NCBI GenBank assembly: GCA_964551875.1
Contig: CAZKEV010000001.1
Coordinates: 11,303 to 75,302, forward strand
Origin: an uncultured Methanomicrobiales archaeon
Lineage (GTDB): Archaea > Halobacteriota > Methanomicrobia > Methanomicrobiales > JACTUA01
Direction of reading: 5' to 3'
DNA: 64,000 bases
Position numbers and translations under genes: made by a program
The notes under the pieces: generated by a model
What the model saw: the letters and a program-made list of their open reading frames with translations, nothing else
Database searches by the model: none
Told to the model about the DNA's origin: nothing
Part shown: positions 9,336 to 55,200 of the stretch, piece after piece
Layout: the number at the start of each line of letters is the position of its first letter
Numbering within the stretch: the stretch's first letter is position 1

Positions 9336-9381
9336 CCTTACTCACGCCTCCTCACCAGTTCGAAATAAGACCCTCCTCTCA

Positions 9382-10782: not shown

Positions 10783-10839
10783 CCTTACTTACGCCTCCTC
10801 ATCAGTTCAAGTCACCCAAGAAAAAATAAGATCTATCTC

Positions 10840-38532: not shown

Positions 38533-39681
38533 ATGAAGCAGGGTCCGGTGATCTTCCTCGTCTTTCTTATCCTCTTCCCTGGGTGCCTTCAGGACGGGCA
38601 TTCGCGAAACCCCGATCTTCCGGTTCAGGTCTCTCCGGGTACCACGGCCGTCGTGGTCCAGCCCCTTCCATCCCTCACCGAGACCACAAGCCCCACGACG
38701 ATTACCACCATCCTTGCTGTGGCAGGCCTGGGGGAGAAAAGATCCTTCACGTTCACCTCCGGGGGTAATGATTACTCATTCACCATCCCGGTGGCGACCA
38801 TTTCAGATCCGGGGAGCACAGAAACCCGGAACTGTCCCCTCATGTCCTGGAGAACCGGAGATGAGGAACGGCTGGCTTCCTACTATGCCGGTATCTTCAA
38901 GGATCCGGGGGAGGCACCGCTCTACGATGCACTCCTCGGGGAGTTCCGCCGCATCAGGAGGATGGAGGGGCTGAACGACGACGAGTACCTCGAACTCCTC
39001 ACGCATTTCGTCCAGCAGATACCCTATGATCCCATGGCTCCTATCTGCCCCAGGCGACCGGATCAGGTGATCCAGGACGAAAAAGGGGACTGCGACGAGA
39101 AGAGCCTCCTCCTGCTCGGGCTCCTGAACAGGGAAGGATACGATGCAGCCATCCTCCTTTTTCCCGGCAGACACCATGCGACCGCGGGGATCCGGATCGA
39201 GACCGAAGGGCGCCCGTCCTTCCGGGTCTACGAACTCAGGGGCAGGAAGTACGTGTACATGGAGACCACCCGGCCTTCTTTCATAGGCCTCTATCCTGAT
39301 GGGTTTGAGAATGAGAACCCGGTCATCATACCAACCGGAAACGGCACCATCACCTACCGGGCCATCAACGACGTGATGCACATCGTTTCGACCCAGAAAA
39401 GGATGGAAGATCGATTGCGGTGGATCAATGAAACAGGTACTGGGATGTTCAACGAGATCGAGAACCTTGAGCAGAAACTCAGCGCGGGGACCGGCTACTC
39501 CACCCGGGATGAATATGATGCGGACTATGCCCGCTATACCAGCCTTGTAACCCAGTACAACACCTATGTCGATGAATTCGGGAAGATCCGCGATGTGTAT
39601 CTCTACATACTCAAGCATCAGTGCGATCGGCAGGGAGTGAGCGGGAGGATCGCGAACAGCAAGGTGGAGAACCTGCTTTGA
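38533..39681 (+). CDS. Transglutaminase-like (cysteine protease fold) lipoprotein
   Basis: Lipobox-like FPGC; FVQQIPY, GDCDEKS, HATAGI, YMETT; helical C-terminus. Confidence 0.8.
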   Translation: MKQGPVIFLVFLILFPGCLQDGHSRNPDLPVQVSPGTTAVVVQPLPSLTETTSPTTITTILAVAGLGEKRSFTFTSGGNDYSFTIPVATISDPGSTETRNCPLMSWRTGDEERLASYYAGIFKDPGEAPLYDALLGEFRRIRRMEGLNDDEYLELLTHFVQQIPYDPMAPICPRRPDQVIQDEKGDCDEKSLLLLGLLNREGYDAAILLFPGRHHATAGIRIETEGRPSFRVYELRGRKYVYMETTRPSFIGLYPDGFENENPVIIPTGNGTITYRAINDVMHIVSTQKRMEDRLRWINETGTGMFNEIENLEQKLSAGTGYSTRDEYDADYARYTSLVTQYNTYVDEFGKIRDVYLYILKHQCDRQGVSGRIANSKVENLL

Positions 39682-39948: not shown

Positions 39949-40920
39949 ATGGATTACCTCCCTTTTCTCCTGATGTTTATCTTTTTCATCCTCATGCCCT
40001 TCGCACTCATGCTTCTTGTGATGCCCCGGAGCATCCGCGCGATGAAGGCACGCGGTTTTGTCGGACGTGATATGTACAAGCCGGATCGCCCTGAGGTCGC
40101 GATCAATGGGGGCCTGATCCTTCTCCTTATTGCTCTCTCCTCCATGTCAATCATCTCCCTCTTCTATTCGAAGCACATCCGTCCCGAGAACCATGCGATG
40201 ATCATGGTCATCGTCCTCTTCGCCCTCTTTGGCCTTGTCGATGATATGATCGATATCGGGAGAAGTGCAAAACTGATCCTCCTCTACTACTGCTCGTATC
40301 CCCTCATACCCTTTGTACCTGTAATCCCCCTGCAGATCCCTTTCATAGGCCCTCTGGACCTCAATATCCTCTACCTGCAGCTCCTCATCCCCACCTTCGT
40401 TCCCGTTGTCGCAAATCTCGTGAATATGCACTCCGGTTTCAATGGGCTTGCACCAGGTCTCTCACTCATGATCCTCACTACGCTCCTCGTAAAGACCTGG
40501 TTCTTCGGGGATATCTATAAGGTTCTTTTTATCATCTGCCTGACCGGCGCGCTTGCCGCCTACTTCCTCTTCGAGAAGTACCCTGCCCAGATCTTCTGGG
40601 GAAATGTGGGGGCACTCTCTGTCGGAGCCGCCATTGGGGCCACATGTGTCATCCAGGGATTCATTGTCTCAGGCTTTGTCATGCTCATACCCCACACGGT
40701 AAACTTCCTGATGTGGATCTACTGGAAACTGAATATGAAGCGCGTGCCCTTCGAGAAATTCGGGAAGATCAGGGAGGATGGGACCCTGGAGGTTCCAAAC
40801 CGATTTACCCTCAAGTGGGTGCTCCCCTATTATTTCCGACTCACGGAGAGACAGTCAGCCCTGGCGATGTTCGGTCTCACCGGCCTTTTCTGTATCGCAG
40901 GGTTTTTCATTCCGGGATGA
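39949..40920 (+). CDS. GPT/AglH-like polyprenyl-phosphate HexNAc-1-phosphate transferase (MraY/GT4 family)
   Basis: DMYKP, GLVDD, NLVNMHSGFNGL, FWGNVG; many TM segments. Confidence 0.85.
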   Translation: MDYLPFLLMFIFFILMPFALMLLVMPRSIRAMKARGFVGRDMYKPDRPEVAINGGLILLLIALSSMSIISLFYSKHIRPENHAMIMVIVLFALFGLVDDMIDIGRSAKLILLYYCSYPLIPFVPVIPLQIPFIGPLDLNILYLQLLIPTFVPVVANLVNMHSGFNGLAPGLSLMILTTLLVKTWFFGDIYKVLFIICLTGALAAYFLFEKYPAQIFWGNVGALSVGAAIGATCVIQGFIVSGFVMLIPHTVNFLMWIYWKLNMKRVPFEKFGKIREDGTLEVPNRFTLKWVLPYYFRLTERQSALAMFGLTGLFCIAGFFIPG

Positions 40921-40976
40921 GATAAGGAAAGAGAAGAATTATCGAACGATCCGAACTTGTGATGACGTGAGATTTT

Positions 40977-41369
40977 ATGGACCTTGTCACGATACCAAGG
41001 GCAATTGCAGGATATATTCTCATCCTTTTTGTACCTGGCTATGCACTCACCTGGGCCCTCTACCCGACTCACGAAGAGCTGGCTTTTATCGAGCGGATAG
41101 CCCTCTCATTTGTCCTGTCTATCGTATCCGTAATGATCTCCGTCCTCTTTGCCGACATCTTCCTCGGGATTGATGTCACACCGCCCAACATCGTCATTGT
41201 CATAATCATTGTGACCGCTCTTGCTGCGCTGATGTGGTTGCTCCAGGTGGTGTATGCGAAGAGCCGGTTGAAGCGATGGATAGACGGAAAACTCGGAAGG
41301 AGGCCGGAAGGTGTTCTTCAGGATCTGAAGGACTCTGATTCTGTGGAAAAATTCTGGAATATCCGATAA
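40977..41369 (+). CDS. DUF1616-type membrane protein
   Basis: LFVPGYALTWALYP...IERIALSFVLSI pattern typical of archaeal glycosylation loci. Confidence 0.75.
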   Translation: MDLVTIPRAIAGYILILFVPGYALTWALYPTHEELAFIERIALSFVLSIVSVMISVLFADIFLGIDVTPPNIVIVIIIVTALAALMWLLQVVYAKSRLKRWIDGKLGRRPEGVLQDLKDSDSVEKFWNIR

Positions 41370-41540
41370 AGAGAATTTCTCATGATCCATGTAATGACAA
41401 TTGGATCTCCCGAGATCTCATCTTAAATGAATCTGGAAATATGTTCATAATTTTACTTCTGGCTGAAGAATGATTCTACGGGCACAGGGTATTTATTCAA
41501 GAAGATTTATAATTTTATCTCAGGGAATAATTCCGCAGAT

Positions 41541-43124
41541 TTGGAGCTGAAGCATCATATGCGGATTAACGATATCATACCGCAGCTGGGGCAATTCCAT
41601 ACTCTCAATACGCAACAAGAAGAGAATCTTGGAAGGTTGATTGAAATCTCAAAGACTTTCAGTGAAGAAGCAGGTATTCCCTTTTTTCATTCCGCACCTG
41701 TCAATAACAGGACGATTGTTCTTGAGTCCGGTCACCAGCCAAACTTCTTACCCTACCCGGGGGTCTGGAAGAAGGCATTCCTTCTGGATTATATCCGGAG
41801 GCATCTCCACGAACTTGGTATGGATGCAATCGCCGTCTTCGGATTCGCTGATTACAACCTTTCGACCGCCTCATATCTCTTCCGGAACCAGGTCCCGGCC
41901 TTCAATAAACAGGGGAGTGAAAATATCGGGTTTAAAACCGCGGAAAAGAATCGCTGGAGATGTTTCCATACTCTGGAGAAGCCATCAGAAGAACGATTCC
42001 TGGCCGAGATGGAGAAAATAAAGCGGTTTTATGAGGAGAATGCAAAAAATCTGAACTCAAACAGAGAGATGATTGGATACCGAACTGAACAGCTGACGGA
42101 TCTCCTCCAGAGAAGTTACGAACGGGCCCGAAGCTTCTCGGGGATGAATGCCACGATCTTTGCCGGGATATGTACTGAAATCTTAGACCTTGATATCCTC
42201 TTTTTCCGATATACGGATCTCCAGAAGAACTGTCTTTTTATTGAATGCTCGCAGCAGATTCTCAATGATATCGAGAGATATAATTCTGTTTATCATCTTT
42301 CCGCCTCCTCTCACCAGACTGGCGTCCCACCCCCAGAAAAGGGAGACGTTCCTTTCTGGTATCACTGTGAATGTGGCGGGAAGGTCCACCTCATGATCGA
42401 TGCATCCTCTAATTTCATCGGAAAATGTCCTGTGTGCGAGAAAGAACATCGCATCTCCATGGGGCCCGAATATACAAATCTCGCCGAGAGATATCCCCGG
42501 ATGAGCCCGAATGCCGTTGCACGGAATATCATATTCGCCGAAGGTCTGGGAACTACCCTCTTCATATCCGGTGTCGGCGGCGGGCTTCATTATGGCCTGA
42601 TTGCAGATGCCATATCCCGGGATATGAATATTCACCGCCCCCTGACGCTCGCATGGCAGTCGAAGGATCATTACCTCGGGGTCGTGCACCAGGTTGCGCT
42701 CAAGGAACTGTTGCGGACCTTCCGTCTTACACCAGCAGACCTTCTCGATCCTGGAATAAGCCGGAGAATCGGTGAAATACGGTCTGCCCTTCTTCAGCAG
42801 GTCAAGGAAATGCAGGAGAACGGAGGCGATAAAAAGGAGATCCAGAGACTGGAAGGCAGGTTCCTGAACTCCGCGGTGCAGGCTGCAACGGTGAAGAAGA
42901 TATTTTCCTCAAACCCATCAGTTCTTGATCTCCTGGTCACCTGCGATGCGAAACAAATCTCGAAACAATGGAATACAGGGGCTTCGGAAGCAGAGATCAT
43001 TCACGAGGATCATCTCATAAGGATGCATGGTGATGTACTCTACCCATGCACTCCTGAATCCCCCGTAGCTCCAGATATGATCCCTGAAGTGTACAAGACA
43101 ATGGTATCGATTGAGGTTAAGTGA
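41541..43124 (+). CDS. Uncharacterised BshC-like / class I aminoacyl-tRNA-synthetase-fold protein with Zn-ribbon motif
   Basis: VLESGHQPNF, FGFADY, YHCECG...KCPVC, MSPNAVAR, FISGVGGGLHY. Family call is inference. Confidence 0.5.
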   Translation: MELKHHMRINDIIPQLGQFHTLNTQQEENLGRLIEISKTFSEEAGIPFFHSAPVNNRTIVLESGHQPNFLPYPGVWKKAFLLDYIRRHLHELGMDAIAVFGFADYNLSTASYLFRNQVPAFNKQGSENIGFKTAEKNRWRCFHTLEKPSEERFLAEMEKIKRFYEENAKNLNSNREMIGYRTEQLTDLLQRSYERARSFSGMNATIFAGICTEILDLDILFFRYTDLQKNCLFIECSQQILNDIERYNSVYHLSASSHQTGVPPPEKGDVPFWYHCECGGKVHLMIDASSNFIGKCPVCEKEHRISMGPEYTNLAERYPRMSPNAVARNIIFAEGLGTTLFISGVGGGLHYGLIADAISRDMNIHRPLTLAWQSKDHYLGVVHQVALKELLRTFRLTPADLLDPGISRRIGEIRSALLQQVKEMQENGGDKKEIQRLEGRFLNSAVQAATVKKIFSSNPSVLDLLVTCDAKQISKQWNTGASEAEIIHEDHLIRMHGDVLYPCTPESPVAPDMIPEVYKTMVSIEVK

Positions 43125-43762
43125 TGGCGCGCAAAATCCTCATCATAAGCCCGCACACCGATGATGGAGAACTCGGTTGCGGGGGATCCGTCGCCCGGTT
43201 TGTTGAAGAAGGGGACGAGGTTTCATATGTTGCTCTCTCGTCCTGTGAGAAATCCATCCCTCCGGAATATCCCTGCGACATCCTGAAGCAGGAGGTTAGG
43301 AATGCCACCCAGGTTCTTGGCATCACCGAACCGGTCCTCTTCGAGTTCGAGGTCAGGGAATTTCCCAGGCTCAGGCAGGAGATTCTCGACACCCTCATCT
43401 CTCTCCGGAACGAGATCCGGCCGGAGATCGTCTTCACTCCTTCCTCCTTCGATACCCATCAGGATCACAAGACCACCCGTGAAGAGACCCTCCGGGCCTT
43501 CAAGCAATGCACAATTCTCGGTTACGAGCAGCCCTGGAACAACATAACTTTCAACACCCTTGCGTTCATTTCCCTGAAGGAACACCATATACAGAAAAAG
43601 ATCGAGGCGCTCGGGTGTTACAAGACCCAGAAACACCGGGCATATCTCTCGGGTGATTTTATTCGAGGCCTCGCACTGACCCGGGGTGTCCAGATCGAAG
43701 AGAAGTATGCAGAGGCATTCGAGGTGATCAAGTGGGTCATGAGGTTATCGGGTGAGTCATGA
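43121..43762 (+). CDS. PIG-L/LmbE-family deacetylase
   Basis: ISPHTDDGELGCGG, DTHQDH, AEAF; overlaps neighbours by 4 nt. Confidence 0.9.
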   Translation: MMARKILIISPHTDDGELGCGGSVARFVEEGDEVSYVALSSCEKSIPPEYPCDILKQEVRNATQVLGITEPVLFEFEVREFPRLRQEILDTLISLRNEIRPEIVFTPSSFDTHQDHKTTREETLRAFKQCTILGYEQPWNNITFNTLAFISLKEHHIQKKIEALGCYKTQKHRAYLSGDFIRGLALTRGVQIEEKYAEAFEVIKWVMRLSGES

Positions 43763-44850
43763 AATTGCTCATTGATGTGGCCCACCCGGCTCATGTACAC
43801 TTTTTCAAGAATTTCCTCGGCGAGATGAGATCCCGGGGCCACGAGATTCTCGTCACCGCGAGGGACAAGGAGGTCACCCTTGCCTTACTTGATAAATACG
43901 GCATTCCATACATAAACAGGGGGTCGATCCAGAAAAGCGTCCTGAAGAAAGCCCTCTCTCTCATCAGGATCGATGCAAAGCTGTGGAAGATCGCCAGGGG
44001 ATTTCAACCGGATCTCTTCCTTGGTATCCACAACCCCTACATTGCCCATGTCGGAGCGGTGATGAGAAGACCCTCGATCATCTTCACCGACACCGAGGGA
44101 GTGAAGGTGGCGAGCATGCTCACCTATCCCTTCGCAAGCGCCATCTGCACTCCGTCGTGTTTCCGGGAGGTCCTCGACCCGAGGAAACATGTCAGGTACA
44201 ACGGCTACAAGGAACTCGCGTATCTCCATCCATCGCGCTTTACTCCACGGGAGGAGGACCTCGGGGACATTGGGCTCTCGAGATCCGACGATTTCATCGT
44301 TTTGCGCTTTATTTCATGGGGCGCGATCCATGACACTTCCCTGAAAGGGATTCAGAGTGGTTCTGAGCTGGAGTTCATCAGGGCACTCGAGGAGTACGGG
44401 AAGGTGCTTCTCACCTCTGAACGTCCCCTTGCAGGGGATCTGGAGAAATACAGGGTTCGGATTTCACCCGAAAAGATCCATTCCCTTCTCTCCTTTGCAC
44501 GGCTCTATATCGGCGAGGGTGGGACGATGGCGACCGAGGCGGCAGTCCTGGGGACGCCGGCGATCCATATTGAATCGACGGGAACGGGCCAGGCGACCGG
44601 TGAGACCTCCGGGAATTTTCTTGAACTCAGGGACAGGTACCACCTGCTCAGATTCTTCCCCGATCAGTACAGGGCACTTGATGAGGCTGTTGGAATACTC
44701 AAAAATTCAGAATCGAAGAGCGAATGGAAGAATAAACGCGAGTTGCTACTTCATGAGAAAATTGATGTCACAGCCTGGATGACCGATTTCGTCGAAAGAT
44801 ACCCTTCGAGTTTTCATGAATACCAGGGCACCGGTGGAATCGGGAGATGA
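43759..44850 (+). CDS. DUF354-family GT-B-like protein
   Basis: DVAHPAHVHFFK, VTARDK, FTDTE, YNGYKELAYLHP, GEGGTMATEAAVLGTP. Confidence 0.88.
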   Translation: MKLLIDVAHPAHVHFFKNFLGEMRSRGHEILVTARDKEVTLALLDKYGIPYINRGSIQKSVLKKALSLIRIDAKLWKIARGFQPDLFLGIHNPYIAHVGAVMRRPSIIFTDTEGVKVASMLTYPFASAICTPSCFREVLDPRKHVRYNGYKELAYLHPSRFTPREEDLGDIGLSRSDDFIVLRFISWGAIHDTSLKGIQSGSELEFIRALEEYGKVLLTSERPLAGDLEKYRVRISPEKIHSLLSFARLYIGEGGTMATEAAVLGTPAIHIESTGTGQATGETSGNFLELRDRYHLLRFFPDQYRALDEAVGILKNSESKSEWKNKRELLLHEKIDVTAWMTDFVERYPSSFHEYQGTGGIGR

Positions 44851-46478
44851 TCTCCTTTCATCACCGTTCCAGTGATTCCTATGGTACTTACGGTATAGAG
44901 CATTTTTTCAGAAAATACGGTATCCCTGTTGACGTTAACCCCCCACAACCATCAAGGGTGAGCATTGGTTACGGGATAAGAAGCCCAGGCGAGAATTTTA
45001 GTATACTGATCCGCGAAAACGAGATCCTGGACGGGATAACGGGATCTCTGGAGGCACAGGGAAAAAAGGCCCCTCTCTTCGAGGTCCCTTCCGATACCGG
45101 TGATGACGGCCTTCCCCTGGCCTTCTATTCGTCAGGAGCTCTGAAATATCCCTGTATGAGTGTGACCGAGGCCGGAATTATTATCGGATTTGACCTCTTC
45201 AAGGAAACCGGACGCATTCTTTCCGGTTCTTTGGATAAGGTCAGGGAAAAACAGGGCACTTCTGACCCGGATCCGTTTACTTCCGTCCCTCTGGTTGATT
45301 TCTACGAATCGCAATTATTCGATGCAATCCTCCGTGCCTACAAGAGAGCCGAGATCCCCCTCGTTCTGGTACCCTTCTGGCCTGACGGGAAAAAGTTCGC
45401 CGTCTGCCTGACCCATGACGTGGATGAGGTGAAAAAAACTTATCAGTGGCTGACGTATCCGGTAAAACTGATTAAAAGAGGTAATTTCAAAGGCCTGACA
45501 CATCAGTTTTCTTCATTATTCAAGAAACTGAGGGGTAAGGAACCCTACTGGACGTTTGATGAGCTGATTCCTCTCGAAGAACGGCTGGGGGTGGTTTCAT
45601 CCTATTTCTTCCTGCAGGAAAATGCCAGGGTCCGAGTGCAGGAAAGGAAAACATGGAAACACATGGGAAGGCGTTATCGATTGGATGACCCGGCAGTGAA
45701 ACAGGTACTTGAAACTCTTCAATTAAAGGGGCACGATATCGGGCTTCACGGGTCTTATGATTCCTACCTTGATGCGGCGTTGCTCTCAGAGGAGAAGAAG
45801 GAACTGGAGAAGATTCTCTCCGGGCATGTTTATGGAACGAGGCAGCACAATCTGAACTTCCGTTTTCCTGATACCTTATTGATCCAGGAAAAGGCTGGTC
45901 TTCTCTACGACTCCACCCTGGGCTTTAACAATACCCTCGGATTCCGCTGGGGAACATGTTTTCCCTTCTATCCTTTCGATCCGAAGGACCAGCGCGGATT
46001 GAACATCCTTGAAATCCCTCTGGTCATCCAGGATACGGTCTTTTTCAGGTATCAGGATCCATGGGGCGAATTTTTAAAACTGGTCAAGGAAATCCAGTCG
46101 TATCAGGGGGTTCTTACATTGCTCTGGCATCATGCGGTCTTTAATGACGATGAATTTCCCGGGTGGGGCCCCCTCTACAGCAGAATCATCGAGTTCTGCA
46201 AACAACAGGGTGCATGGGTTACGAATGGCAGGGAGATTGCGGAATGGTGGAAAGGGAGGGAGTCCATCCGAATAAAAGCTGAATTTGATGGATTTACCAT
46301 GAAAATCAGGCCTATTCCTGGGGATCATGACATCGCGATATATTTACCGGGACCATGGTCGGTGGAAAAAATCACAAATGCAGGGCTCGTGGAATTTGAT
46401 CACCAGATAATGGTAATCCGACCGGACGACTCCGCGGAAGGGAGTGGGATCGAGATACAATTTTCAGGGACCAAATAA
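44847..46478 (+). CDS. Polysaccharide deacetylase-family protein with N-terminal extension
   Basis: CLTHDVD, SSYFFL, GLHGSY, RQHNL, YDSTLG, LTLLWH. Confidence 0.88.
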   Translation: MISFHHRSSDSYGTYGIEHFFRKYGIPVDVNPPQPSRVSIGYGIRSPGENFSILIRENEILDGITGSLEAQGKKAPLFEVPSDTGDDGLPLAFYSSGALKYPCMSVTEAGIIIGFDLFKETGRILSGSLDKVREKQGTSDPDPFTSVPLVDFYESQLFDAILRAYKRAEIPLVLVPFWPDGKKFAVCLTHDVDEVKKTYQWLTYPVKLIKRGNFKGLTHQFSSLFKKLRGKEPYWTFDELIPLEERLGVVSSYFFLQENARVRVQERKTWKHMGRRYRLDDPAVKQVLETLQLKGHDIGLHGSYDSYLDAALLSEEKKELEKILSGHVYGTRQHNLNFRFPDTLLIQEKAGLLYDSTLGFNNTLGFRWGTCFPFYPFDPKDQRGLNILEIPLVIQDTVFFRYQDPWGEFLKLVKEIQSYQGVLTLLWHHAVFNDDEFPGWGPLYSRIIEFCKQQGAWVTNGREIAEWWKGRESIRIKAEFDGFTMKIRPIPGDHDIAIYLPGPWSVEKITNAGLVEFDHQIMVIRPDDSAEGSGIEIQFSGTK

Positions 46479-46613
46479 CTGCAATATTTGATAAACAGAT
46501 CAATTTATCTGATAAATAAATATAATATAAGAATAATACTATTTCTTAAAATATATAAAATATCGATGCGATATTAATTATGATCACAGACAAGAATTAT
46601 AGAACTGAGTCCG

Positions 46614-47633
46614 ATGATGAAATTTGAGATCCATGTTGCACAGGATAATGAAGCCGGTTTATGGGATCAGATAAATGACAGTTCTGCCCATGGATCCCCG
46701 TTTCATACGTGGAAGTGGCTGAAAATAGCCGAGCGACATTCAAATTCGAAGCTTGTTCCGATCATCGGTTTTAGGGATGACGAACCCCTGGGGATATTTC
46801 CCCTCTTTTTTGGGAAAAAATACTTCGTTCGATTTGTATTTTCTCCCCCTCCCCGTACTGCACTCCTGTACCTGGGTCCTGTTCTGGCCAATTATGATAA
46901 TCTAAGACAGGAACGAAAGGAGTACTTCTTTTCCGAGTTCCAAAGTAGGGTTGATCAATATATTACCGACTCGCTTTCCCCGGGCTATACCTACATCGCT
47001 CTTCCTTACGGGCTGTCCGATCCCCGCCCGTTCAAATGGTCAGGCTATTCCATCGGCCAGACGTATGATTATTCGACGAACCTGAATGGCAGTATTGATG
47101 ATGTCTGGCTGAGGTTCAAGCCCAAATTACGAAAGGATATAGATAGGGCGGAAAGAAAGGGAATCCACGCTGAAGAGGGTGGTAAAAAGGAGCTCGAGAT
47201 CATTTACGACCTTCTCGTGGAAAGGTATCGCGAACAGAACAGGGTTGTGAAGGTGCCTAAAAACTATCTTTTCGACCTCCATGATACTTTCCCTCAAAAT
47301 ATGAAGATCTTCGTGGCAAAATCAGATGACCAGATCATCACGGGATCGGTTGAAATCCTCCACCGGGATGCATTGCTGAGCTGGATAGGATCACCCAAGC
47401 CCAAAGATGAGAAGTATCAGTCCCCCAACGAGGTGCTCACATGGGAAATCATGAAATATTCTTATGAACATGGCCTGAAGAAGAATATCCAGCTTGGTAC
47501 TGCAGGGAATGAGAGATTGTCAAAATATTATTCGAAATTTAACCGGGACCTCAACGTGCGCTTTACAGCCAAAAAAACCACCCCGGTCACGAAAATAATG
47601 GAGATCGTGTACTGTTCGGTGCTGAGCCGGTAA
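46614..47633 (+). CDS. FemAB-like double-GNAT protein 1
   Basis: FHTWKWLKI, YLGPV, RKDIDRAERKG, PNEVLTWEIM, SKFN. Confidence 0.82.
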   Translation: MMKFEIHVAQDNEAGLWDQINDSSAHGSPFHTWKWLKIAERHSNSKLVPIIGFRDDEPLGIFPLFFGKKYFVRFVFSPPPRTALLYLGPVLANYDNLRQERKEYFFSEFQSRVDQYITDSLSPGYTYIALPYGLSDPRPFKWSGYSIGQTYDYSTNLNGSIDDVWLRFKPKLRKDIDRAERKGIHAEEGGKKELEIIYDLLVERYREQNRVVKVPKNYLFDLHDTFPQNMKIFVAKSDDQIITGSVEILHRDALLSWIGSPKPKDEKYQSPNEVLTWEIMKYSYEHGLKKNIQLGTAGNERLSKYYSKFNRDLNVRFTAKKTTPVTKIMEIVYCSVLSR

Positions 47634-47703
47634 AATCACTTTCGGGTCCTTATTCGATGGAGAATATTTCATTAACGTTCAGGGAAATATAATCTTAAAA
47701 CCT

Positions 47704-48711
47704 ATGGACATTGATTTGAAGATTGCCACTGAGGATGATTCCAAGGGCTGGGATGATATCGTACATTCCTCTCCGCACGGAACCATCTTTCACACCTGGA
47801 AGTGGCTCAAGATCGTTGAGAGGCACAGGGGCTGCACATTTTACCCGCTTATTGCGTACCGGGATACCTCTCTTTATGCGATATACCCGATTTTTCTCCA
47901 GAAGAAGGGTATTTTCCGAATCGCCCTTTCCCCCCCCTCCCATGCATACCTCCTCTACCTCGGGCCGGTCATTATCGACTATGAGAAGAAAAAGCAGGAT
48001 AAAAAGGAGAGCATTTTCATCGAGCTCCAGCGCGAGGTTGATAAATTCATTTTTGAGAGGATGAAATGTAGATATTCAAGAATACGCCTTTCACCCGGAT
48101 TAAACGATTCAAGGCCATTACAATGGAATAATTATACGGTGACCCCCCTGTATACCCTCCGGACAGGTCTTGGGATTGGCAAGGAGCAGATTCTCGAAAG
48201 ATTTGACAGGAAACTCCGGGTAAGCCTGAACCGGGCAATAAAGGAGGGAGTTGTCGTCCGAGAAGGAAAGAGGGAGGATTTGCTTCTGGTCGAGGAGAAC
48301 CTGACCCGGAGACGAAAGGATCAGAGTCTTCCATCGACCGATCACGTCGGATATCTCCTCGACCTGTATGATCATTTTCATGACAACATGAAAATATTCC
48401 TGGCATATCACCAGGATGAACTCGTGGGAAGCCTCGTGGCCCTCGTCTACAGGGATATCATGCACCTCTGGATAGGGACCCCGAAAAGCGAATTAAAAGG
48501 CGTATATCCCAATGATCTCGTCCAGTGGGAGGCGATGAAGTGGGCCTGCGACCACCAGCTCACCTATTTCGAAAGCATGGATGCCGGGGATGATCTCCGG
48601 CTAAGGGCGTACAAGTCAAAATGGAACCCCGATCCCCTAATCTGGTTCTCTGCAGAGAAATACTCCTCCCCGTTGTTCAGGATTGGAGAACGGCTTTTCA
48701 TGAAGAAGTAA
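47704..48711 (+). CDS. FemAB-like double-GNAT protein 2
   Basis: FHTWKWLKI, YLGPV, PNDLVQWEAM, YKSKWN. Confidence 0.82.
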   Translation: MDIDLKIATEDDSKGWDDIVHSSPHGTIFHTWKWLKIVERHRGCTFYPLIAYRDTSLYAIYPIFLQKKGIFRIALSPPSHAYLLYLGPVIIDYEKKKQDKKESIFIELQREVDKFIFERMKCRYSRIRLSPGLNDSRPLQWNNYTVTPLYTLRTGLGIGKEQILERFDRKLRVSLNRAIKEGVVVREGKREDLLLVEENLTRRRKDQSLPSTDHVGYLLDLYDHFHDNMKIFLAYHQDELVGSLVALVYRDIMHLWIGTPKSELKGVYPNDLVQWEAMKWACDHQLTYFESMDAGDDLRLRAYKSKWNPDPLIWFSAEKYSSPLFRIGERLFMKK

Positions 48712-49050
48712 GACACTGAAGACAGTGGTATGGTTTGATAACCATATCACTAAATCTCCCCTTTTTGAGGTTCTTTTCAGAAAAAACGAGCTTTATATAT
48801 CCCCAATAGGTTCTCATATAATATATTTCCTTGAGGATCATGCTCTCAAATTTTCGGCATCTGCCGAAGTCCCTCAAAATTAGAACCTTTTTAAAAAGCT
48901 TCAAAGCGAGGTAGGTTCCATATGAAACCATTTCCCATCCACACGAATTATGCCCGGGAACGCACCCGGGCCATGCCCGAGAAGATCAGGGCTCACCCAT
49001 GAGATACATCTGCTCTGGGGTGGGCTCCTAGGGTGCAGCATAACAATAAC

Positions 49051-49102
49051 GGCATTCCCATATCTCCGGATCCTCCGGGGCGAGGTGCGGGCCGATCCGC
49101 AC
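49051..49102 (+). repeat. Direct repeat, left copy, flanking the RlpA-SH3 gene
   Basis: GGCATTCCCATATCTCCGGATCCTCCGGGGCGAGGTGCGGGCCGATCCGCAC; 46/52 identical to 50784-50835. Confidence 0.85.
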
Positions 49103-49236
49103 GCAGTGCAGGGGATCAGAGGAGGATCGGATACCATGAAGAGGGGGAGGATATTTGGGTATGTCAGGGTTAGGTTAGGGGAGGGTGAAAGTGAGGGTAG
49201 TTTCATTCCCCAATATTCGGAATATAAAAAATTTGT

Positions 49237-50457
49237 TTAGGTCATTTTCTTCTTCATGACCACTACTGCCACCATTACTCCACCCAATATTGCTATGGGG
49301 ACCGTAACTGTCGGAAATTCAGGGACAGACCCTCCACCATCCCACCCAAGAGGGATGATCTCTCCTGTATTTTTAACCTGGATTCGATATGGACTGGAAG
49401 GAATATCTTTTACCTTACCAGATGCAAGTGTCAAGATTTGAATGTAATCAGACCCCGGAGGATCGTATAACGATTCTGCAAAGAGTGTGAAATCTGCATT
49501 TGGGTCGGCACCAGGCCTTGGTGTCATTGTAATTAGATAATCACCGGTTTTTAAACCTTTGAATTTAATACCCGCTTTAAGAACTCCATTTGATTCATAT
49601 TCGCTATATTCTGTTCCAGGAATCTGGTTGGTGAACTTTGATCCGATCAGTCCCTCGGGGTCCTCCACCGTAAAGTATGCCGGGCCATACACAATGACTT
49701 TTCCTCCGGCCCATAAGAATTCAACTGTTACCCAATCGTTATTAGTCATTCCAAGATCAGAGAATGTGCCATCGGCTAAATCAATTCCTGCAGGATTAGA
49801 GGGACTTCTTTTTTGTGCAGACCATCCGGAAGAACCGCTATCCCATTGAATTTTCCACCACGAGTATGTTATTCCACTAACAATACCCGTCTCTGGGCCG
49901 GAAATCACCGTACCAATATCGCTCGTGGATACCGATCCACTTTCGCTCCCACCAGGTGTTGTTCTGACTTTTAATCCATCAATAGTTGGGCGAACGCGAT
50001 CGTTTGTTTTCAATATATCCGAACCAGCAGAGGTTATGAGAAGATTCGTCTCATCAAATCCGCCGTTATAATCATTTAGATAAGCGGCTTGCGCTTCAGG
50101 AGTTCCTTGAGGAAGATCCTGCCACATTTCTCGTTCTTCGGGGAGGTTCCAATAGTCATCCCTTGTATTCCATGGTCCTGTATCCCATACAGGCGCCACA
50201 ACAGATTTTCCTTTGTAGGTCAGTCGTACTTGGAATCCATTCCCTCCATTACGACTTAGCACCGTCCTTGAAGGTAAACCCACGAAATGATCATTTGATT
50301 GGATAAGATGCCCATTTGCAGTTGTTTTTCCGACAAGACCTTCTCTAGTAGCATATACGGTGTAACTAACACCAGCATTAACAGGGAGAATTACCAACCC
50401 ACTAACTCCCAAAATAACAATTAAAATAAAAATAATTATGATTTCTTTTTTCTTCAT
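49237..50457 (-). CDS. PEF-CTERM surface protein: RlpA-like double-psi beta-barrel with inserted SH3b-like domain
   Basis: Signal peptide; GKTTANG, GKSVVAPVWDTGP, GIDLADG..DLG, VTVEFL match the RlpA pattern; aa about 148-216 LKVRTTPG...WWKIQWDSGSSGWSA are SH3b-like; tail VPEFPT + TM + KKKMT. Confidence 0.8.
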   Translation of the reverse strand: MKKKEIIIIFILIVILGVSGLVILPVNAGVSYTVYATREGLVGKTTANGHLIQSNDHFVGLPSRTVLSRNGGNGFQVRLTYKGKSVVAPVWDTGPWNTRDDYWNLPEEREMWQDLPQGTPEAQAAYLNDYNGGFDETNLLITSAGSDILKTNDRVRPTIDGLKVRTTPGGSESGSVSTSDIGTVISGPETGIVSGITYSWWKIQWDSGSSGWSAQKRSPSNPAGIDLADGTFSDLGMTNNDWVTVEFLWAGGKVIVYGPAYFTVEDPEGLIGSKFTNQIPGTEYSEYESNGVLKAGIKFKGLKTGDYLITMTPRPGADPNADFTLFAESLYDPPGSDYIQILTLASGKVKDIPSSPYRIQVKNTGEIIPLGWDGGGSVPEFPTVTVPIAILGGVMVAVVVMKKKMT

Positions 50458-50783
50458 CCTTGCATTCCTCCATGTTTCATTCTACCATCGAGAATTTCCA
50501 TAACCATCAGCCATATCAGCTCTCGCAGGTCCAGAAAGAATAGAACTCTGAAGTGTTAGACTGAGCGCTGAACGGAGCGAGAACAACCCCGCGAGCAACA
50601 GAGCAGTATCCCTCATGCTATATAAAACATGTTATATTTTCCACGGTTGAATACTTCATAAAAATGCAAAGATTTGGAATTCGATGCAGCTATCATAGTT
50701 TTTATATTACCTCTGGATAATAAAAAATTTTAACGGACTCCCTCCTAACACCACTGGTCCGATGTCTTCGGGCCATCAATACT

Positions 50784-50835
50784 GGCATTCCCATATCTCC
50801 GGATCCTTCGGGGCGAGGTGAGGACCAACCTGCAC
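50784..50835 (+). repeat. Direct repeat, right copy, flanking the RlpA-SH3 gene
   Basis: GGCATTCCCATATCTCCGGATCCTTCGGGGCGAGGTGAGGACCAACCTGCAC; only one mismatch to the left copy in the first 37 nt. Confidence 0.85.
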
Positions 50836-50980
50836 CAAGGACAAGGGAGCAGGTGCGGTCCATGAGGAGAGGGAGTATCATCCAAGGTTGCGTGGCCTGC
50901 TATGGCCATATACTGTTCGAATTAATGGATATTCTTGCATTACCATTAGGATGAGGATAACTAATTGGAATTTTTTTATG

Positions 50981-51088
50981 AGTGTGTGCGCACACTTTCT
51001 CTCATCCAATTCTTCTTACAAATAAACACGCATGAGAGAAATCACACAACAATTGCTCCGCCCCGTGCTTTGTTTCGTTGTGTGATTT
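50981..51088. other. Three interlocking inverted repeats upstream of GNAT gene 3
   Basis: AGTGTG/CACACT (50981-50996), TTTCTCTCAT/ATGAGAGAAA (50996-51041), AAATCACACAAC/GTTGTGTGATTT (51039-51088). Confidence 0.6.
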
Positions 51089-51133
51089 GCGCGTCTTCTT
51101 ATTTCAAAACATTAATATAAAGTTTTCTCGAAT

Positions 51134-52156
51134 ATGACACCAATGGAAGTTCGCCTCGCAACCGATCCGGATAGCCGGTTATGGGATGAGATTATTTCTT
51201 ATTCCCCCGATGCAGCAATCTTCCATACATGGAAATGGCTCAAAATAATGGAGAAACATTCGAGGAAAAGAGTTCTTGCAGGCCCTATAAAACCAGTTCT
51301 CTATCCCTTAATGATTTCCACCGAGGATGAAATTTTCAGTGTCATCCCGATATATCTCTTTGATGGGTTTTTCGGGAAGATGGCATATTCGCCTCCTCCG
51401 GCGGTCGAATGTGCATATTTGGGTCCGGTATTCAATAATTGCCAATCCCTCATACCTAGGGAACGATACCACCGTTTTTTTGAATTCCAGGCTGCACTCC
51501 ATGAATTTTTGGTGAAAGATCTCCATGCAAAAAAGATCTTCATCCGCACTCCCACGGGATTTGAAGATCCCCGCAGCTTCTCCTGGGGTTCCTATACAGT
51601 TGCCCCGAAATTCACTTATCTTTTGGATCTTGGGGGTGGAGAAGAGTTCCTCTGGAAGAACCTCCGGAATACCGTAAAGAAATCCATCAGGAGGAGTGAA
51701 AAAGTTGGCATCGAATTTCTCGAGGGAACAAAAGAGGATCTCGAACCGCTCTTTCGCTTAATGAAGGAGAGGAAGAGAACAAGGGCATTGATGAAGTATT
51801 TCCAGGAGATCTATGATGCGTACAACCCCCAGAATGTGCGGATCTTCACAGCCAGCCACCAAGGGGAAATCCTGAGCGCCCTCGTTATTACAGTCTTTAA
51901 AAATAGGGTATCCTCTTGGTTTGGAACACCACGGATGTCGTACAAAGGGGTGTCGCCAAACGAATTCCTCCACTGGCATCTCATCCAGTGGGCCATCGAA
52001 CAGGGCATGGAGTGCTTTGAACTTGTAGGGGCCGATGATTATCCCTTATTTGCCTTTAAAAACAAGTTTAATGCCACGCTGGCACTCAATTACCGGCTGG
52101 AATGGAATTCTCCGGGATTCCGGGTCATCGGCATGTTATATAATATGCTAAAATAG
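51134..52156 (+). CDS. FemAB-like double-GNAT protein 3
   Basis: FHTWKWLKI, YLGPV, KKSIRRSEK, PNEFLHWHLI, FKNKFN. Confidence 0.82.
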   Translation: MTPMEVRLATDPDSRLWDEIISYSPDAAIFHTWKWLKIMEKHSRKRVLAGPIKPVLYPLMISTEDEIFSVIPIYLFDGFFGKMAYSPPPAVECAYLGPVFNNCQSLIPRERYHRFFEFQAALHEFLVKDLHAKKIFIRTPTGFEDPRSFSWGSYTVAPKFTYLLDLGGGEEFLWKNLRNTVKKSIRRSEKVGIEFLEGTKEDLEPLFRLMKERKRTRALMKYFQEIYDAYNPQNVRIFTASHQGEILSALVITVFKNRVSSWFGTPRMSYKGVSPNEFLHWHLIQWAIEQGMECFELVGADDYPLFAFKNKFNATLALNYRLEWNSPGFRVIGMLYNMLK

Positions 52157-52231: not shown

Positions 52232-55200
52232 ATGCCCAGATACTCCCGCTGGGTCAGCAGGTCCCTGATCCTCTTGTCCCTTGTGATCACGGTCCTGCTC
52301 ATCTTTCCAGTCGATGCCCAGACCCATCCATCGTTGCTCTTCAATGATATCAGGGATACGCCGGGCTACCAGCACCGGACCACGGCTCCGTGGAGTGATT
52401 ATGAATCCTCGATCATCAGCTATGCCGATGATTATCTGTCCGTGGACTTCTCCAGCAGTAGCCTGAGTCAAAGCACCCGGGCTGATGACGCCCAGGATCT
52501 CGGTCTCGCCTACCAGATCACCAAACAGCAGAAGTATGCCGATGCGGCCCGGTGGGCTCTCCTTAACATCACGCCTCCGCAAGCCGGCCGTGATAACCAG
52601 GAGATGAACTCCCTGCGGGGCTACGCCCTTGCTTATGACTGGATACAGACCACCCTCAGCGCGGCGGATAATGCTACCATAAGGGACAAGATGGCAATAG
52701 TTACCGATCAGGTGTACAAAGATCTCAATAAAAACGGTGCCTATCGGGGGGTCATCCAGTTTGCCGACTACGATGGACAGGCCTACCCGGCAGTCGGGAT
52801 CATGGGGTGCGCCCTCTCCGACTACACCAACCCCCTCTCCCTCTCCTCCACGCCAGCCGACTGGCAGAAGGTGGGGACCGACTACCTCTTTGTTGACGAT
52901 AGCGTGCTCCATGACACCGGTGGCCGGTCCATGTTCAGCTTCGGGTTTGACGAGGCATCCGGAAAACACCTGAACGGCGCCTACAAGTTCTATGTGAGCG
53001 ACTCGTTCCTCTGGTGGTTCCAGGTCTACAGCCACTTCAAAGGGACGAACATCCTCGGGGTCTACCCCGCCGCCAGGCGGGCCTTCACCTCTGAGCTCTG
53101 GGAGTCAATGCCCAACTATTACAGCAATAACTATGTTACCCTGGGTAACACCCTCTGGGATTACCCGCTGGGGCTCCTCAACCTCTATGATCCCGATACA
53201 AGAGCCCAGGTTCTCAACTACCTTGACCATGTCCAGAGCACCTCCTTGCTCCCCTACTCACGTACTTTCAGTTCACCCTCCAGCCGGCTCCTCTACCTCG
53301 TCTACCCGGACACCAGTGCCATGCCCCGCACGACTCCCTCCTCTACGAGCCACCTGGATCCGAACGCCATCTACCAGGTATTCCGGGGGAGCTGGGCCGA
53401 GGACTCCGATTGGCTCTCCCTGGTCACCTTCAATGTCAATACCTGGAGCAACCGGGACAGAATGCATCACGACCAGCTGGGTATTGAGTATTATAGCAGG
53501 GGCGACCTGCTCCTCGCCGATGCAGGAGAGGATAAGCATGTACAGGATGCGTACTATGGCGACTTTGAGATCCATCACAATACCATCGCCCTTGAAAATC
53601 CCAGATCCCCCTTTTCTCTTGCGGCCTGGTCGAATAGCCCGGCGCGCGGTATTTTTAAAGGGGATACGAGCGGTATCACGACACCGGTCACCATAGATAC
53701 CCTCGTTCAGACTTCATGGGTGGAGATGCTTGCAGGGCGGGCTACCATTACTGAAGTCATCGGGAATGGTTGGTCGGATTATTATACCCTCTCACCCTCC
53801 GTTCAGTTTTCCCGATCCATACTCTATCCCAGCAGGGATTACTTTATCCTCATCGACCGGCTGCAGGGAAGCGAGACCTGGACGTATCGGAATATCTTCC
53901 GTCCCACCAGCCTCTCTATTACCCCCACATCAGGCTCAACGGTCGGGAATGTCCAGGGAAGCCTTACCTTGGGAGGAACTCTCTTCAACTGGCTGGGCCT
54001 TGACTACAAGAGAGAGACCTCCACTGGCATCACTACGAACTCCCTGAAATGGACGACCCGGAACCCCTATGGGGACAATGTCAACCTGGAAGTCTTCACC
54101 AGCCCGGCCTCCGAGGTTTTGGTCACCAAGCACGTGGGGAGAATTGCGGGATACGACGAGAAGAATGAGGTGTACTCACCGATTATCTCCTTCCGGACCC
54201 CTTCGGTAAATAACCTCTACCGGGTCACTGTACTCCTTTCCCGCTATGACTCTGAAACTGCGAAGGAGCCATCGGAGCTTGTGGTGACCGGGCTGGGTTC
54301 CGCCGTAAAGGTGCATAATACAACATTTGACGACTATATCTATGCTGGCAGCGGTTCATCATCATTCGGACCATTCTCTACCGATGCGGAAACGGTCTAT
54401 ACACGCGTAACCACTCGACCTGTCAACTACACCATGGCTGGCGGGAGTTATCTGAACTTTTCAGAGAGATCATTCCTGCGAGTTTCCGAGAATATCGACT
54501 GCCTCGCGGCAACAGAAAAGGCCGACCGGATATCGTTGTACATAAAGAGCGGATCGCCAGGTTATACCATATCCCTCTTCCAGCTTCAGCAAAGTGTAAC
54601 CGGGGTCACGATAGATGGTATTCCCTCTGCATCTTGGACAAATACTGGTGATACCATGACATTTACCGCTACCCAGGGCGCACATCTTGTGGATATCCTC
54701 ACTGCCCCGTTCCCGAACCGGCCCCCGAGCCTCGATCCCATCGGGAACAAGACCGTGACTGCTGGATCCCCGCTCGCCTTTACCATCAGTGCGACGGATC
54801 CCGATGGGAATGCTCTCACGTATTCAGCAGCCGGGCTCCCCTCAGGGGCAATATTCGATGCTTCTTCGAGAACCTTCACCTGGACCCCTGCAACCTCCCA
54901 GAATGGGTCCTACCAGATGAAATTCACAGTATCAGATGGATCACTCACCGATGACGAGACCATCTTCATTACGGTTCTTCGGGTTGGTGCCCCCCCGAAC
55001 CAGCCCCCGAGCCTCGATCCCATCGGGAACAAGACCGTGACTGCTGGATCCCTGCTCACCTTTACCATCAGTGCGACAGATCCCGACGGGAATGCTCTCA
55101 CGTATTCAGCAGCCGGGCTCCCCTCAGGAGCAATATTCGATGCTTTTTCGAGGACCTTTACCTGGACCCCTGCAATCTCCCTGAATGGGTCCTATCAGAT

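Follow-up and report, generated by a model that had tools for sequence, protein, structure and literature searches.

Organization of the locus

A largely co-oriented gene cluster was found between positions 39949 and 52156 of a 64,000-nucleotide stretch of contig CAZKEV010000001.1 from an uncultured Methanomicrobiales archaeon (the whole stretch is hereafter called the window). It encodes a membrane phosphoglycosyl transferase (GPT), a small DUF1616 membrane protein, a protein with the fold of the bacillithiol enzyme BshC, two predicted de-N-acetylases, a DUF354 protein and three FemX/VimA-like transferases (Table 1). The window most likely carries the Methanomicrobiales version of a conserved archaeal cluster for a membrane-bound amino sugar carrying amino acids, the product of which may be the attachment point of surface proteins.

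All of the open reading frames (ORFs) named in the initial annotation, which had been made from the letters of the window, were recovered at their coordinates on the plus strand, and the ORF list and family scans bore out its succession of a co-oriented GPT gene, a middle block and three FemAB-like genes. The 4-nucleotide overlaps of the middle block were likewise found, as ATGA at 43759 and 44847 and GTGA (or TGATG) at 43121, and the genes of this block (41541-46478) are translationally coupled. Two ORFs absent from that annotation were added, namely the DUF1616 gene and a minus-strand gene for a protein with a PEF-CTERM-like tail. The soluble enzymes of the cluster have neither a signal peptide nor a transmembrane segment in a hydrophobic-segment scan. 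No tRNA gene and no Rfam family occur within the cluster, nor was a dedicated tRNA gene found in the window, which argues against a dedicated non-proteinogenic tRNA.

Table 1. Features of the cluster and its flank, with strand and the basis of each assignment.
Feature	Position	Strand	Basis
Polyprenyl-phosphate N-acetylhexosamine (HexNAc)-1-phosphate transferase (Glycos_transf_4; WecA/MraY/AglH type), predicted initiator	39949-40920	+	PF00953
Small DUF1616 membrane protein with three transmembrane segments	40977-41369	+	Pfam PF07760
BshC-fold, class I aminoacyl-tRNA synthetase-like putative ATP-dependent amino-acid:aminosugar ligase, 527 aa	41541-43124	+	AlphaFold (AF2) model and Foldseek
PIG-L/LmbE-type zinc de-N-acetylase	43121-43762	+	Pfam PF02585
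DUF354 GT-B-fold enzyme, glycosyltransferase or UDP-HexNAc 2-epimerase-like	43759-44850	+	PF04007 and AF2 model
VimE-like (CE4-related) predicted cytoplasmic de-N-acetylase, 543 aa	44847-46478	+	NCBIfam NF053580
FemX/VimA-like aminoacyl transferase, paralog 1	46614-47633	+	Pfam, TIGR03019
FemX/VimA-like aminoacyl transferase, paralog 2 (separate conserved orthogroup)	47704-48711	+	Pfam
Secreted 406-aa protein with PEF-CTERM-like sorting tail, candidate archaeosortase substrate	49237-50457	-	Tail scan
FemX/VimA-like aminoacyl transferase, paralog 3	51134-52156	+	Pfam, TIGR03019
1122-aa surface protein with He_PIG, Big_9, cadherin-like and PKD domains	52232-55600	+	Pfam
1269-aa membrane protein, possibly a GT-C-type transferase	57124-60933	-	Transmembrane scan, weak PMT_2

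Conservation of the cluster across archaea

When one genome per species was scanned with a profile of the BshC-like protein, 67 loci were found, distributed among Methanomicrobiales, Methanocellales, Methanoperedens, Syntrophoarchaeum, Alkanophaga, Archaeoglobi, Altiarchaeota, Micrarchaeota, Thermoplasmatales, Bathyarchaeia and two or three bacterial bins. Genes in these loci were labelled by comparing stop-to-stop six-frame ORFs with the window proteins (phmmer, E ≤ 1e-5 or 1e-6), a procedure that counts fragmented genes in low-quality metagenome-assembled genomes (MAGs) as present and yields counts that depend on the flank available per contig. Conservation was counted in the 29 loci outside Bathyarchaeia that offer 5 kb or more of flank on each side.

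The recurrent order is GPT, DUF1616, BshC-like, PIG-L, DUF354, VimE-like and then one to four Fem genes. A PIG-L gene adjoins the BshC-like gene in 21 of the 29 loci, Fem genes are present in the same number (21/29), DUF354 and VimE-like genes in 20 each, and DUF1616 stands directly upstream of the BshC-like gene in 19; 12 loci have a GPT ortholog upstream of the cluster. The initial annotation had taken these genes to form one pathway, and in this co-occurrence check across genomes they do travel together (20-21 of the 29 loci for each of PIG-L, DUF354, VimE-like and Fem). Dozens of loci, representing eight or more archaeal lineages, show this order of genes, so that chance does not account for the arrangement. 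In Bathyarchaeia the pair of PIG-L and BshC-like genes alone is kept, adjoining in six of seven loci and accompanied by GT2 genes.

Clustering of the other ORFs in these loci revealed further recurrent neighbours, including a hexapeptide acetyltransferase, VanZ, a PaaK/F390-synthetase-like adenylating enzyme, a DegT aminotransferase, an NDP-sugar dehydrogenase, an ATP-grasp ligase, a Wzx flippase and a protein of the Exosortase_EpsH family. Flippases of the Wzx/Polysacc_synt type and the polyprenyl-pyrophosphate phosphatase BacA occur in the clusters of relatives.

It was also observed that two bacterial-labelled bins (L004, DSDU01000217, 'Deltaproteobacteria bacterium'; P0102, 'Smithella sp.') contain a cluster with a Methanogenium-like order, namely GPT, DUF1616, BshC-like, PIG-L, DUF354, VimE-like, Fem, ATP-grasp, Fem and hexapeptide acetyltransferase, which reflects either mis-binning or inter-domain transfer.

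Linkage to archaeosortase C and PEF-CTERM proteins

The Exosortase_EpsH protein is encoded in 10 loci, and the four examples tested (L019, L038, L048 and L051) are archaeosortase C (ArtC), with TIGR03762 scores of 150-268 bits against a cut-off of 100. ArtC has been described as specific to PEF-CTERM proteins (PMC5244752). In Archaeoglobi, artC is placed inside the co-directional array, between the PIG-L and DUF354 genes. Locus L038 reads PEF-protein, DegT aminotransferase, NDP-sugar dehydrogenase, GPT and, further on, VanZ, DUF1616, BshC-like, PIG-L, ArtC, again a PEF-protein, DUF354, adenylating enzyme, VimE-like, three Fem genes and Wzx. The complete genome of a cultured organism, Ferroglobus placidus DSM 10642, also carries an artC-containing cluster (L133, CP001899, 1657121-1677960), in the order BacA, GPT, VanZ, DUF1616, BshC-like, PIG-L, ArtC, DUF354 and, further on, FemAB, GT1, ATP-grasp, FemAB, GNAT and flippase; a transposase gene of the IS240 family separates the DUF354 block there from the Fem block. 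In MAGs of Methanoperedens, Syntrophoarchaeum and Methanosarcinales, artC abuts the DUF1616 and BshC-like genes.

Two of the neighbour families (f3 and f25) consist of PEF-CTERM proteins. The motif P[ED][FYW] was found at the right distance in 25 of 105 ORFs with a C-terminal transmembrane segment and basic tail, while most permuted motifs gave 0. The linkage was also recovered in the reverse direction, when metagenomes were scanned with an alignment of ArtC proteins that all share the catalytic Cys, Arg and His. Of the 64 loci obtained, 59 had a recognisable ArtC, and a PEF-family neighbour was present in 49 of these; BshC-like and PIG-L genes were present in six of the seven loci whose flanks reach 4 kb or more on each side, the exception having a divergent ArtC. 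The scan again gave the array PEF-protein, ArtC, PEF-protein, VanZ, DUF1616, BshC-like, PIG-L.

Methanomicrobiales loci, the window included, carry proteins with tripartite tails of the 'PEFP(T/S)' type, and two loci (L001 and L009) keep the PEF-protein family that adjoins artC in Archaeoglobi. The 'PEFP(T/S/A)…' tails of five loci (L005, L006, L016, L022 and L050) and of the window protein score under the cut-offs of both TIGR03024 (PEF-CTERM) and TIGR04296 (PEFG-CTERM), and none of these six has an archaeosortase gene within 10 kb. In a search with the ArtC profile, no Methanomicrobiales ArtC was among the best 120 hits. As artC is linked to the cluster in other orders and was not found near the Methanomicrobiales loci, the sortase link holds for the cluster family and is extrapolated to the window. 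A literature search found no publication joining ArtC with PIG-L, FemAB, BshC-like or DUF1616 genes, and none combining BshC, archaea, PIG-L and FemAB; nor was a description of the cluster found.

Enzyme families of the cluster

The GPT protein is a polytopic membrane protein with at least eight hydrophobic segments and passes PF00953 (E 1.1e-24, 87.7 bits against a cut-off of 27), as expected of the GPT-like initiator of the initial annotation. The DUF1616 protein matches PF07760 (E 1.6e-12, 47.6 bits against a cut-off of 31.6).

The BshC-fold protein, the translation of which probably begins with the ATG at position 41559 (giving 521 aa), matches no Pfam or NCBIfam model, PF10079 and the NCBIfam BshC model included, even at E ≤ 5. 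More than 200 homologs were found in Methanomicrobiales, Ca. Alkanophaga and others, all of them named 'hypothetical', and an exhaustive profile search of 1.84 billion representatives resolved the family into 395 clusters at 50% identity; no curated Pfam or NCBIfam model exists for this family or for the PEF-protein families. Its alignment shows an invariant ESGHQPN motif and four invariant cysteines (C270, C272, C290 and C293). A profile of 30 homologs retrieved no BshC chain from the PDB sequences, its sole match being a DPH3/Kti11-like 4-Cys zinc ribbon (E 0.01); residues ~259-315 form an invariant 4-Cys insertion resembling the CSL zinc ribbon of DPH3/Kti11. The AF2 model (mean predicted local distance difference test score, pLDDT, 92) fits the BshC fold, that is, a Rossmann-like core of the class I aminoacyl-tRNA synthetase type with helical domains. 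Its best PDB match in Foldseek is Bacillus subtilis BshC (4WBD, E 8.7e-13, TM-score 0.61/0.59), followed by class I lysyl-tRNA synthetase and further class I aminoacyl-tRNA synthetases. Several remote family members reach or come near the PF10079 threshold of 27 bits (P0317 scores 38.6 bits and P0370 32.8 bits) and the window protein does not, so the relation to BshC is one of superfamily-level homology only. The 'BshC-like' label of the initial annotation thus stands for fold and remote homology and falls for family membership or orthology. One homolog (P0010, 712 aa) is a fusion of a DUF1616 domain with a BshC-like protein.

The Bathyarchaeia proteins (L059-L066) form a divergent branch of the BshC-fold family, with 23-27% identity and 540-610 aa, which is always paired with PIG-L and GT2 and lacks DUF354, VimE-like, Fem, DUF1616 and ArtC. 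The remote members that reach the Pfam BshC threshold resemble this branch in length and divergence.

The PIG-L protein passes PF02585 (E 2.3e-20, 73.8 bits against a cut-off of 28.2) and retains the PHTDD and HQDH metal-binding motifs, in agreement with its earlier label; its best NCBIfam match is the BshB1 model (70 bits, E 2e-19), under the equivalog cut-off of 182.5. The second predicted deacetylase had been called a polysaccharide deacetylase. It has no Pfam match, Polysacc_deac_1 included, and its relation is to VimE and the CE4 family: it matches NF053580 over model positions 130-428 of 431, almost all of the catalytic part (E 3.3e-28, 98 bits), and its family profile weakly matches the CE4 structure 3RXZ (E 3e-5) through an invariant THDVD motif. 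Judging from these profiles, the protein is related to VimE but is not its equivalog.

The DUF354 protein matches PF04007 (E 8.7e-16), and its AF2 model (pLDDT 91) shows the two Rossmann domains of the GT-B fold, as the initial annotation had it. Foldseek neighbours of the model include the GT1 enzyme SpnG (5e-12), UDP-GlcNAc 2-epimerase (8e-12, TM-score 0.69) and MurG (5e-10). Since glycosyltransferases and 2-epimerases are equally represented among them, the enzyme may be either a transferase or an epimerase. Its profile had no match among PDB sequences, and a literature search on DUF354 returned DUF354x families only and none on DUF354 itself.

The three FemAB-like GNAT proteins of the initial annotation all pass the Acetyltransf_6 and PF02388 FemAB cut-offs (Acetyltransf_6 at E 1e-10, 4e-13 and 3e-20, and FemAB at 26.5, 26.4 and 47.5 bits against a cut-off of 24, for paralogs 1, 2 and 3, respectively). 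All three also match TIGR03019 (pepcterm_femAB), paralog 1 with E 3.5e-14 and paralog 3 with E 8e-17. The solved structures matched by the family profile are exclusively aminoacyl-tRNA-dependent transferases: FemX (6SNR, 2.5e-14; 1XE4, 2.9e-14), an aminoacyl-tRNA-dependent peptide synthase (1.6e-8) and FemA (7.7e-7). Fem1-type and Fem2-type genes co-occur in many loci, indicating old orthogroups and not recent duplicates.

Neighbouring genes and base composition

The protein encoded on the minus strand between Fem paralogs 2 and 3 has hydrophobic segments at its N-terminus and C-terminus and a tripartite tail, detected by a tail scan with controls, that ends …VPEFPTVTVPIAILGGVMVAVVVMKKKMT. Downstream of the cluster, the 1122-aa surface protein starts with an N-terminal signal-like segment, and its homologs adjoin the cluster in 8 of the 29 loci. 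The 1269-aa membrane protein has at least nine transmembrane segments in its first 465 aa, followed by a large soluble part that ends in a CarboxypepD_reg-like domain. It matches PMT_2 (GT-C) weakly (E 1e-3, 19.6 bits, under the cut-off of 26.1), and a profile of its N-terminal part had no match among PDB sequences. Homologs stand beside the cluster in Methanomicrobiales, Methanoperedens (L015, E 0) and Archaeoglobi (L030 and L080). A class I S-adenosylmethionine-dependent methyltransferase is encoded between these two giant proteins (56284-57060, plus strand), and a secreted protein of 382 aa with no Pfam match just upstream of the GPT gene (38533-39681, plus strand). Three tandem paralogous beta-propeller proteins (YNCE/NHL/lactonase-like, 456-466 aa) are encoded at 7965-12225 on the minus strand, where G+C is slightly lower.

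The G+C content is ~60% up to 38 kb of the window and 38-51% from there to its end, so that positions 38000-64000 form a low-GC island. In the closest MAG (L002) the orthologous cluster has a host-like G+C of ~0.6, and amino-acid permease and EamA genes lie upstream in both genomes. This suggests that a surface-gene island has been laterally replaced in the genome of the window.

Proposed pathway and alternative explanations

The findings can be accommodated in one pathway, in which the steps from GPT to the Fem enzymes follow from family membership and the archaeosortase step is added by analogy, gene linkage being what was observed for it. The Glycos_transf_4 enzyme would load HexNAc-1-phosphate onto a lipid carrier, and the DUF354 enzyme would add, or epimerise, a second HexNAc. 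PIG-L and the VimE-like CE4 enzyme are predicted to remove one N-acetyl group each, which would expose sugar amines. At the membrane, the BshC-fold enzyme with its DUF1616 partner may ligate an amino acid to one amine at the expense of ATP, and the three FemX/VimA-like enzymes may use aminoacyl-tRNA to place one or more amino acids on the other amine or to lengthen the first substituent. The predicted product on the cytoplasmic face of the membrane would be a polyprenyl-(pyro)phosphate-linked amino sugar, either mono- or disaccharide, with N-acetyls exchanged for amino acids. After flipping, its free alpha-amino group could accept the new C-terminus of PEF-CTERM proteins from the archaeosortase, by analogy with sortase and Lipid II-Gly5, with PorU and its linking sugar and, in outline, with the glycosylphosphatidylinositol (GPI) anchor.

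A probability of roughly 70% is assigned to a surface glycoconjugate with N-aminoacyl amino sugars that forms part of the ArtC/PEF-CTERM system, and the odds appear even for the full chain from the lipid-linked aminoacyl amino sugar to an archaeosortase acceptor. The initial annotation had proposed that de-N-acetylation frees an amine which is re-acylated by ATP-dependent and tRNA-dependent enzymes, giving a peptidyl-glycan coat. Its chemistry is the best-supported reading of the cluster, with two deacetylases, two amide-forming enzyme classes and a precedent in VimE and VimA. The coat and the decoration of an N-glycan were not borne out; the embedding of the cluster with artC and PEF-CTERM substrates in relatives points instead to an acceptor for protein anchoring. 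A more specific version is an archaeal GPI-like glycolipid anchor, in which a lipid-linked glucosamine, deacetylated by PIG-L, aminoacylated by the BshC-fold enzyme and extended by the FemX-like enzymes, would be the ArtC acceptor for PEF-CTERM proteins. This version is tentative and less likely than not; the lipid would be polyprenyl-pyrophosphate or archaeol.

Several observations weigh against the proposed pathway or its sorting step. No artC or other exosortase-family ORF is present in the 64-kb window, and in none of the Methanomicrobiales loci does the cluster have an artC closer than 10 kb. Methanoregula formicica, the one Methanomicrobiales genome tabulated in an earlier survey, has no ArtC or PEF-CTERM protein by InterPro (PMC5244752, Table 2). 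The tail of the window protein scores 14.7 bits (E 0.028) against TIGR03024, under the cut-off of 23, and among ten tails tested in relatives only one reached the cut-off of this model. The reverse scan was not a fully independent test, its patterns having been built from cluster-linked ArtCs, and co-location with the sortase could reflect shared regulation of surface components and not a donor-acceptor relation. With regard to the enzymes, the VimE-like protein remains far under the equivalog cut-off of 440 bits, and the WbpA/B/E/D genes, which supply UDP-GlcNAc3NAcA as the VimE substrate, were not found in the window (NDP-sugar dehydrogenase, DegT aminotransferase and hexapeptide acetyltransferase genes occur in 5-11 of the 29 related loci). 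DUF354, as modelled, could be an epimerase instead of a glycosyltransferase, and even bona fide BshC, a putative Cys ligase, has yet to be reconstituted (PMC5790435).

The absence of a nearby artC in Methanomicrobiales would also fit an ordinary surface glycan, such as an N- or O-glycan or a repeat of an extracellular polysaccharide, that carries N-aminoacyl or peptidyl groups and is attached to the S-layer or to the giant surface proteins encoded next to the cluster, artC and PEF genes being merely neighbouring surface genes. This is essentially the peptidyl-glycan coat of the initial annotation. The enzyme assignments fit it equally well, the Methanomicrobiales cluster is flanked by the giant Ig/PKD protein and by the weakly GT-C-like multi-spanning protein, a possible glycan-to-protein transferase, and the ATP-grasp, PaaK-like adenylating and hexapeptide acetyltransferase genes of relatives are typical of elaborate glycan tailoring. 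However, artC inside the Archaeoglobi operon and the array recovered in the reverse scan are tighter than generic clustering of surface genes, the one or two glycosyltransferase-type genes in the window are too few for the repeat unit of a polymer, and no polymerase or chain-length gene was detected there. An ordinary glycan is thus considered unlikely, though it is the strongest of the competing explanations. A wall-like or sheath polymer is clearly less probable still. It would be a pseudomurein-like glycopeptide in which Fem-like enzymes and the ATP-grasp ligases of relatives build cross-linkable peptides on a disaccharide-lipid. The MraY/WecA-family initiator does match the archaeal pseudomurein MraY model (E 4e-11), FemX-like enzymes are present, and relatives have ATP-grasp ligases and a MurJ/Wzx-type flippase, with BacA in F. 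placidus; the MraY match nevertheless reaches only 43 bits against a cut-off of 450, there are no pseudomurein Mur-type ligases, and no transpeptidase other than the archaeosortase is linked to the cluster. Methanomicrobiales, Archaeoglobi and Methanoperedens, moreover, have S-layers rather than peptidoglycan-like sacculi. The pseudomurein reading was rejected on the tiny MraY score and the missing Mur ligases.

The initial annotation had offered a new low-molecular-weight thiol as its alternative, that is, a soluble bacillithiol- or mycothiol-like aglycone-GlcN-Cys made by the GT-B, PIG-L and BshC-like trio, with the Fem and second deacetylase genes as unrelated neighbours. The three-enzyme logic does parallel BshA/BshB/BshC, the PIG-L protein scores best against BshB1, BshC is the closest structure to the BshC-fold protein, and their pair is the most conserved of the cluster, being retained even in Bathyarchaeia. 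Against this, the BshC models of Pfam and NCBIfam do not detect the window protein, and the GT-B enzyme is DUF354 and not BshA. A membrane phosphoglycosyl transferase gene runs in the same direction as the trio, which overlaps the VimE-like gene by 4 nucleotides. A DUF1616 membrane protein is encoded ahead of the BshC-like gene and in some cases fused to its product, and in relatives artC, PEF substrates, flippases and BacA are embedded with the trio. Bacillithiol has never been detected in archaea, in which recognised BshA and BshC homologs are mostly confined to Asgard archaea (PMC7278568). A thiol product is therefore highly improbable, and this reading was rejected in view of the membrane initiator, DUF1616 as a partner and fusion domain, the 4-nucleotide coupling with the VimE-like gene, the replacement of BshA by DUF354 and the lack of a BshC model match.

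Comparison with known systems

The closest known system is the Wbp/Vim pathway of Porphyromonas gingivalis and Tannerella forsythia, comprising VimE, the FemAB-like VimA and the glycosyltransferase VimF. There, VimE removes a 2-N-acetyl group and VimA, which is TIGR03019-like, adds Ser or Gly, giving the sugar that is linked to the C-termini of type IX secretion system (T9SS) cargo (PMC7468200). The VimE and VimA pair is experimentally supported and hence provides a precedent for chemistry in which a sugar is deacetylated and then aminoacylated. The archaeal cluster likewise pairs a cytoplasmic CE4-type de-N-acetylase with TIGR03019/FemAB-like transferases, predicted to put an amino acid in place of N-acetyl, and the product amine, which in Wbp/Vim receives the C-terminus of the sorted protein (PorU, seryl or glycyl linking sugar), is proposed to do so in the archaeal case too. 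Unlike Wbp/Vim, the cluster has an archaeal host, scores far under the equivalog cut-offs and has three Fem paralogs instead of one VimA; the Wbp enzymes missing from the window are only partly present in relatives. It adds the PIG-L and BshC-fold pair, DUF354 and DUF1616, and the linked transpeptidase is ArtC and not PorU of the T9SS. The authors of that work also speculated that VimA-like genes in exosortase loci make the acceptor used there (PMC7468200).

The genomic logic resembles that of bacterial PEP-CTERM/exosortase (XrtA/EpsH) loci for extracellular polysaccharide, which correlate with deacetylase, sugar transferase and CapK-like genes (Haft 2006, PMC1569441). Shared elements are a sorting enzyme of the exosortase/archaeosortase family with multiple tripartite-signal substrates, a phosphoglycosyl transferase, a polysaccharide deacetylase, a FemAB-family protein and a CapK/PaaK-like adenylating enzyme. 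The archaeal cluster differs in the use of ArtC and PEF-CTERM, in the addition of the BshC-fold ligase, PIG-L, DUF354, DUF1616 and VanZ, and in having no chain-length, export or outer-membrane components.

Bacillithiol and mycothiol synthesis (BshA/BshB/BshC and MshA/MshB/MshC) shares a GT-B enzyme, a PIG-L/LmbE deacetylase and an enzyme resembling class I aminoacyl-tRNA synthetases, the last of which places, or in the cluster is predicted to place, an amino acid on the amine of glucosamine. The archaeal BshC-fold proteins are by contrast a small family with an extra 4-Cys zinc ribbon, accompanied by DUF354 instead of the GT4 enzyme BshA, and their context is the membrane and surface and not cytoplasmic redox. 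In Gram-positive bacteria, serial aminoacyl-tRNA-dependent transfer by FemXAB onto a polyprenyl-pyrophosphate-linked sugar-peptide, Lipid II, creates the nucleophile amine for sortase A, and the likeness extends to the match of the window Fem profile with FemX and FemA structures. No muramyl pentapeptide is involved in the archaeal case, the acceptor amine being predicted on a de-N-acetylated sugar, and the sortase fold is unrelated.

In the ArtA/PGF-CTERM system of Haloferax, as in GPI anchoring, a transpeptidase-like enzyme exchanges a C-terminal transmembrane signal for an amine-bearing lipid, and GPI anchor synthesis also employs a GlcNAc de-N-acetylase of the PIG-L family. ArtA-dependent anchoring needs the PssA and PssD genes of amine-lipid synthesis (PMC7157517); unlike the archaeal cluster, it thus depends on archaetidylethanolamine without a glycolipid, and GPI uses phosphoethanolamine on mannose and not an aminoacyl sugar. 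Precedents therefore exist for the chemistry, in Wbp/Vim, and for the genomic logic, in the PEP-CTERM loci, and what is new is the enzyme family and the link to ArtC.

Significance

To our knowledge, evidence on the molecule that accepts the processed substrates is indirect for ArtA and lacking for ArtC and the bacterial Xrt enzymes. The cluster described here names a concrete set of enzymes that may make an archaeosortase/exosortase acceptor, and one of its carriers, Ferroglobus placidus, is in culture. By extension of the GPI-like possibility, an equivalent acceptor might be made by the FemAB and deacetylase enzymes encoded in bacterial exosortase loci. The cluster also suggests a functional context for DUF354 and DUF1616, and the BshC-fold family, which is new and small, could shed light on the BshC reaction itself. 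The sugar logic of Wbp/Vim, in which deacetylation is followed by aminoacylation, would thereby be extended from Bacteroidota to many archaeal phyla.

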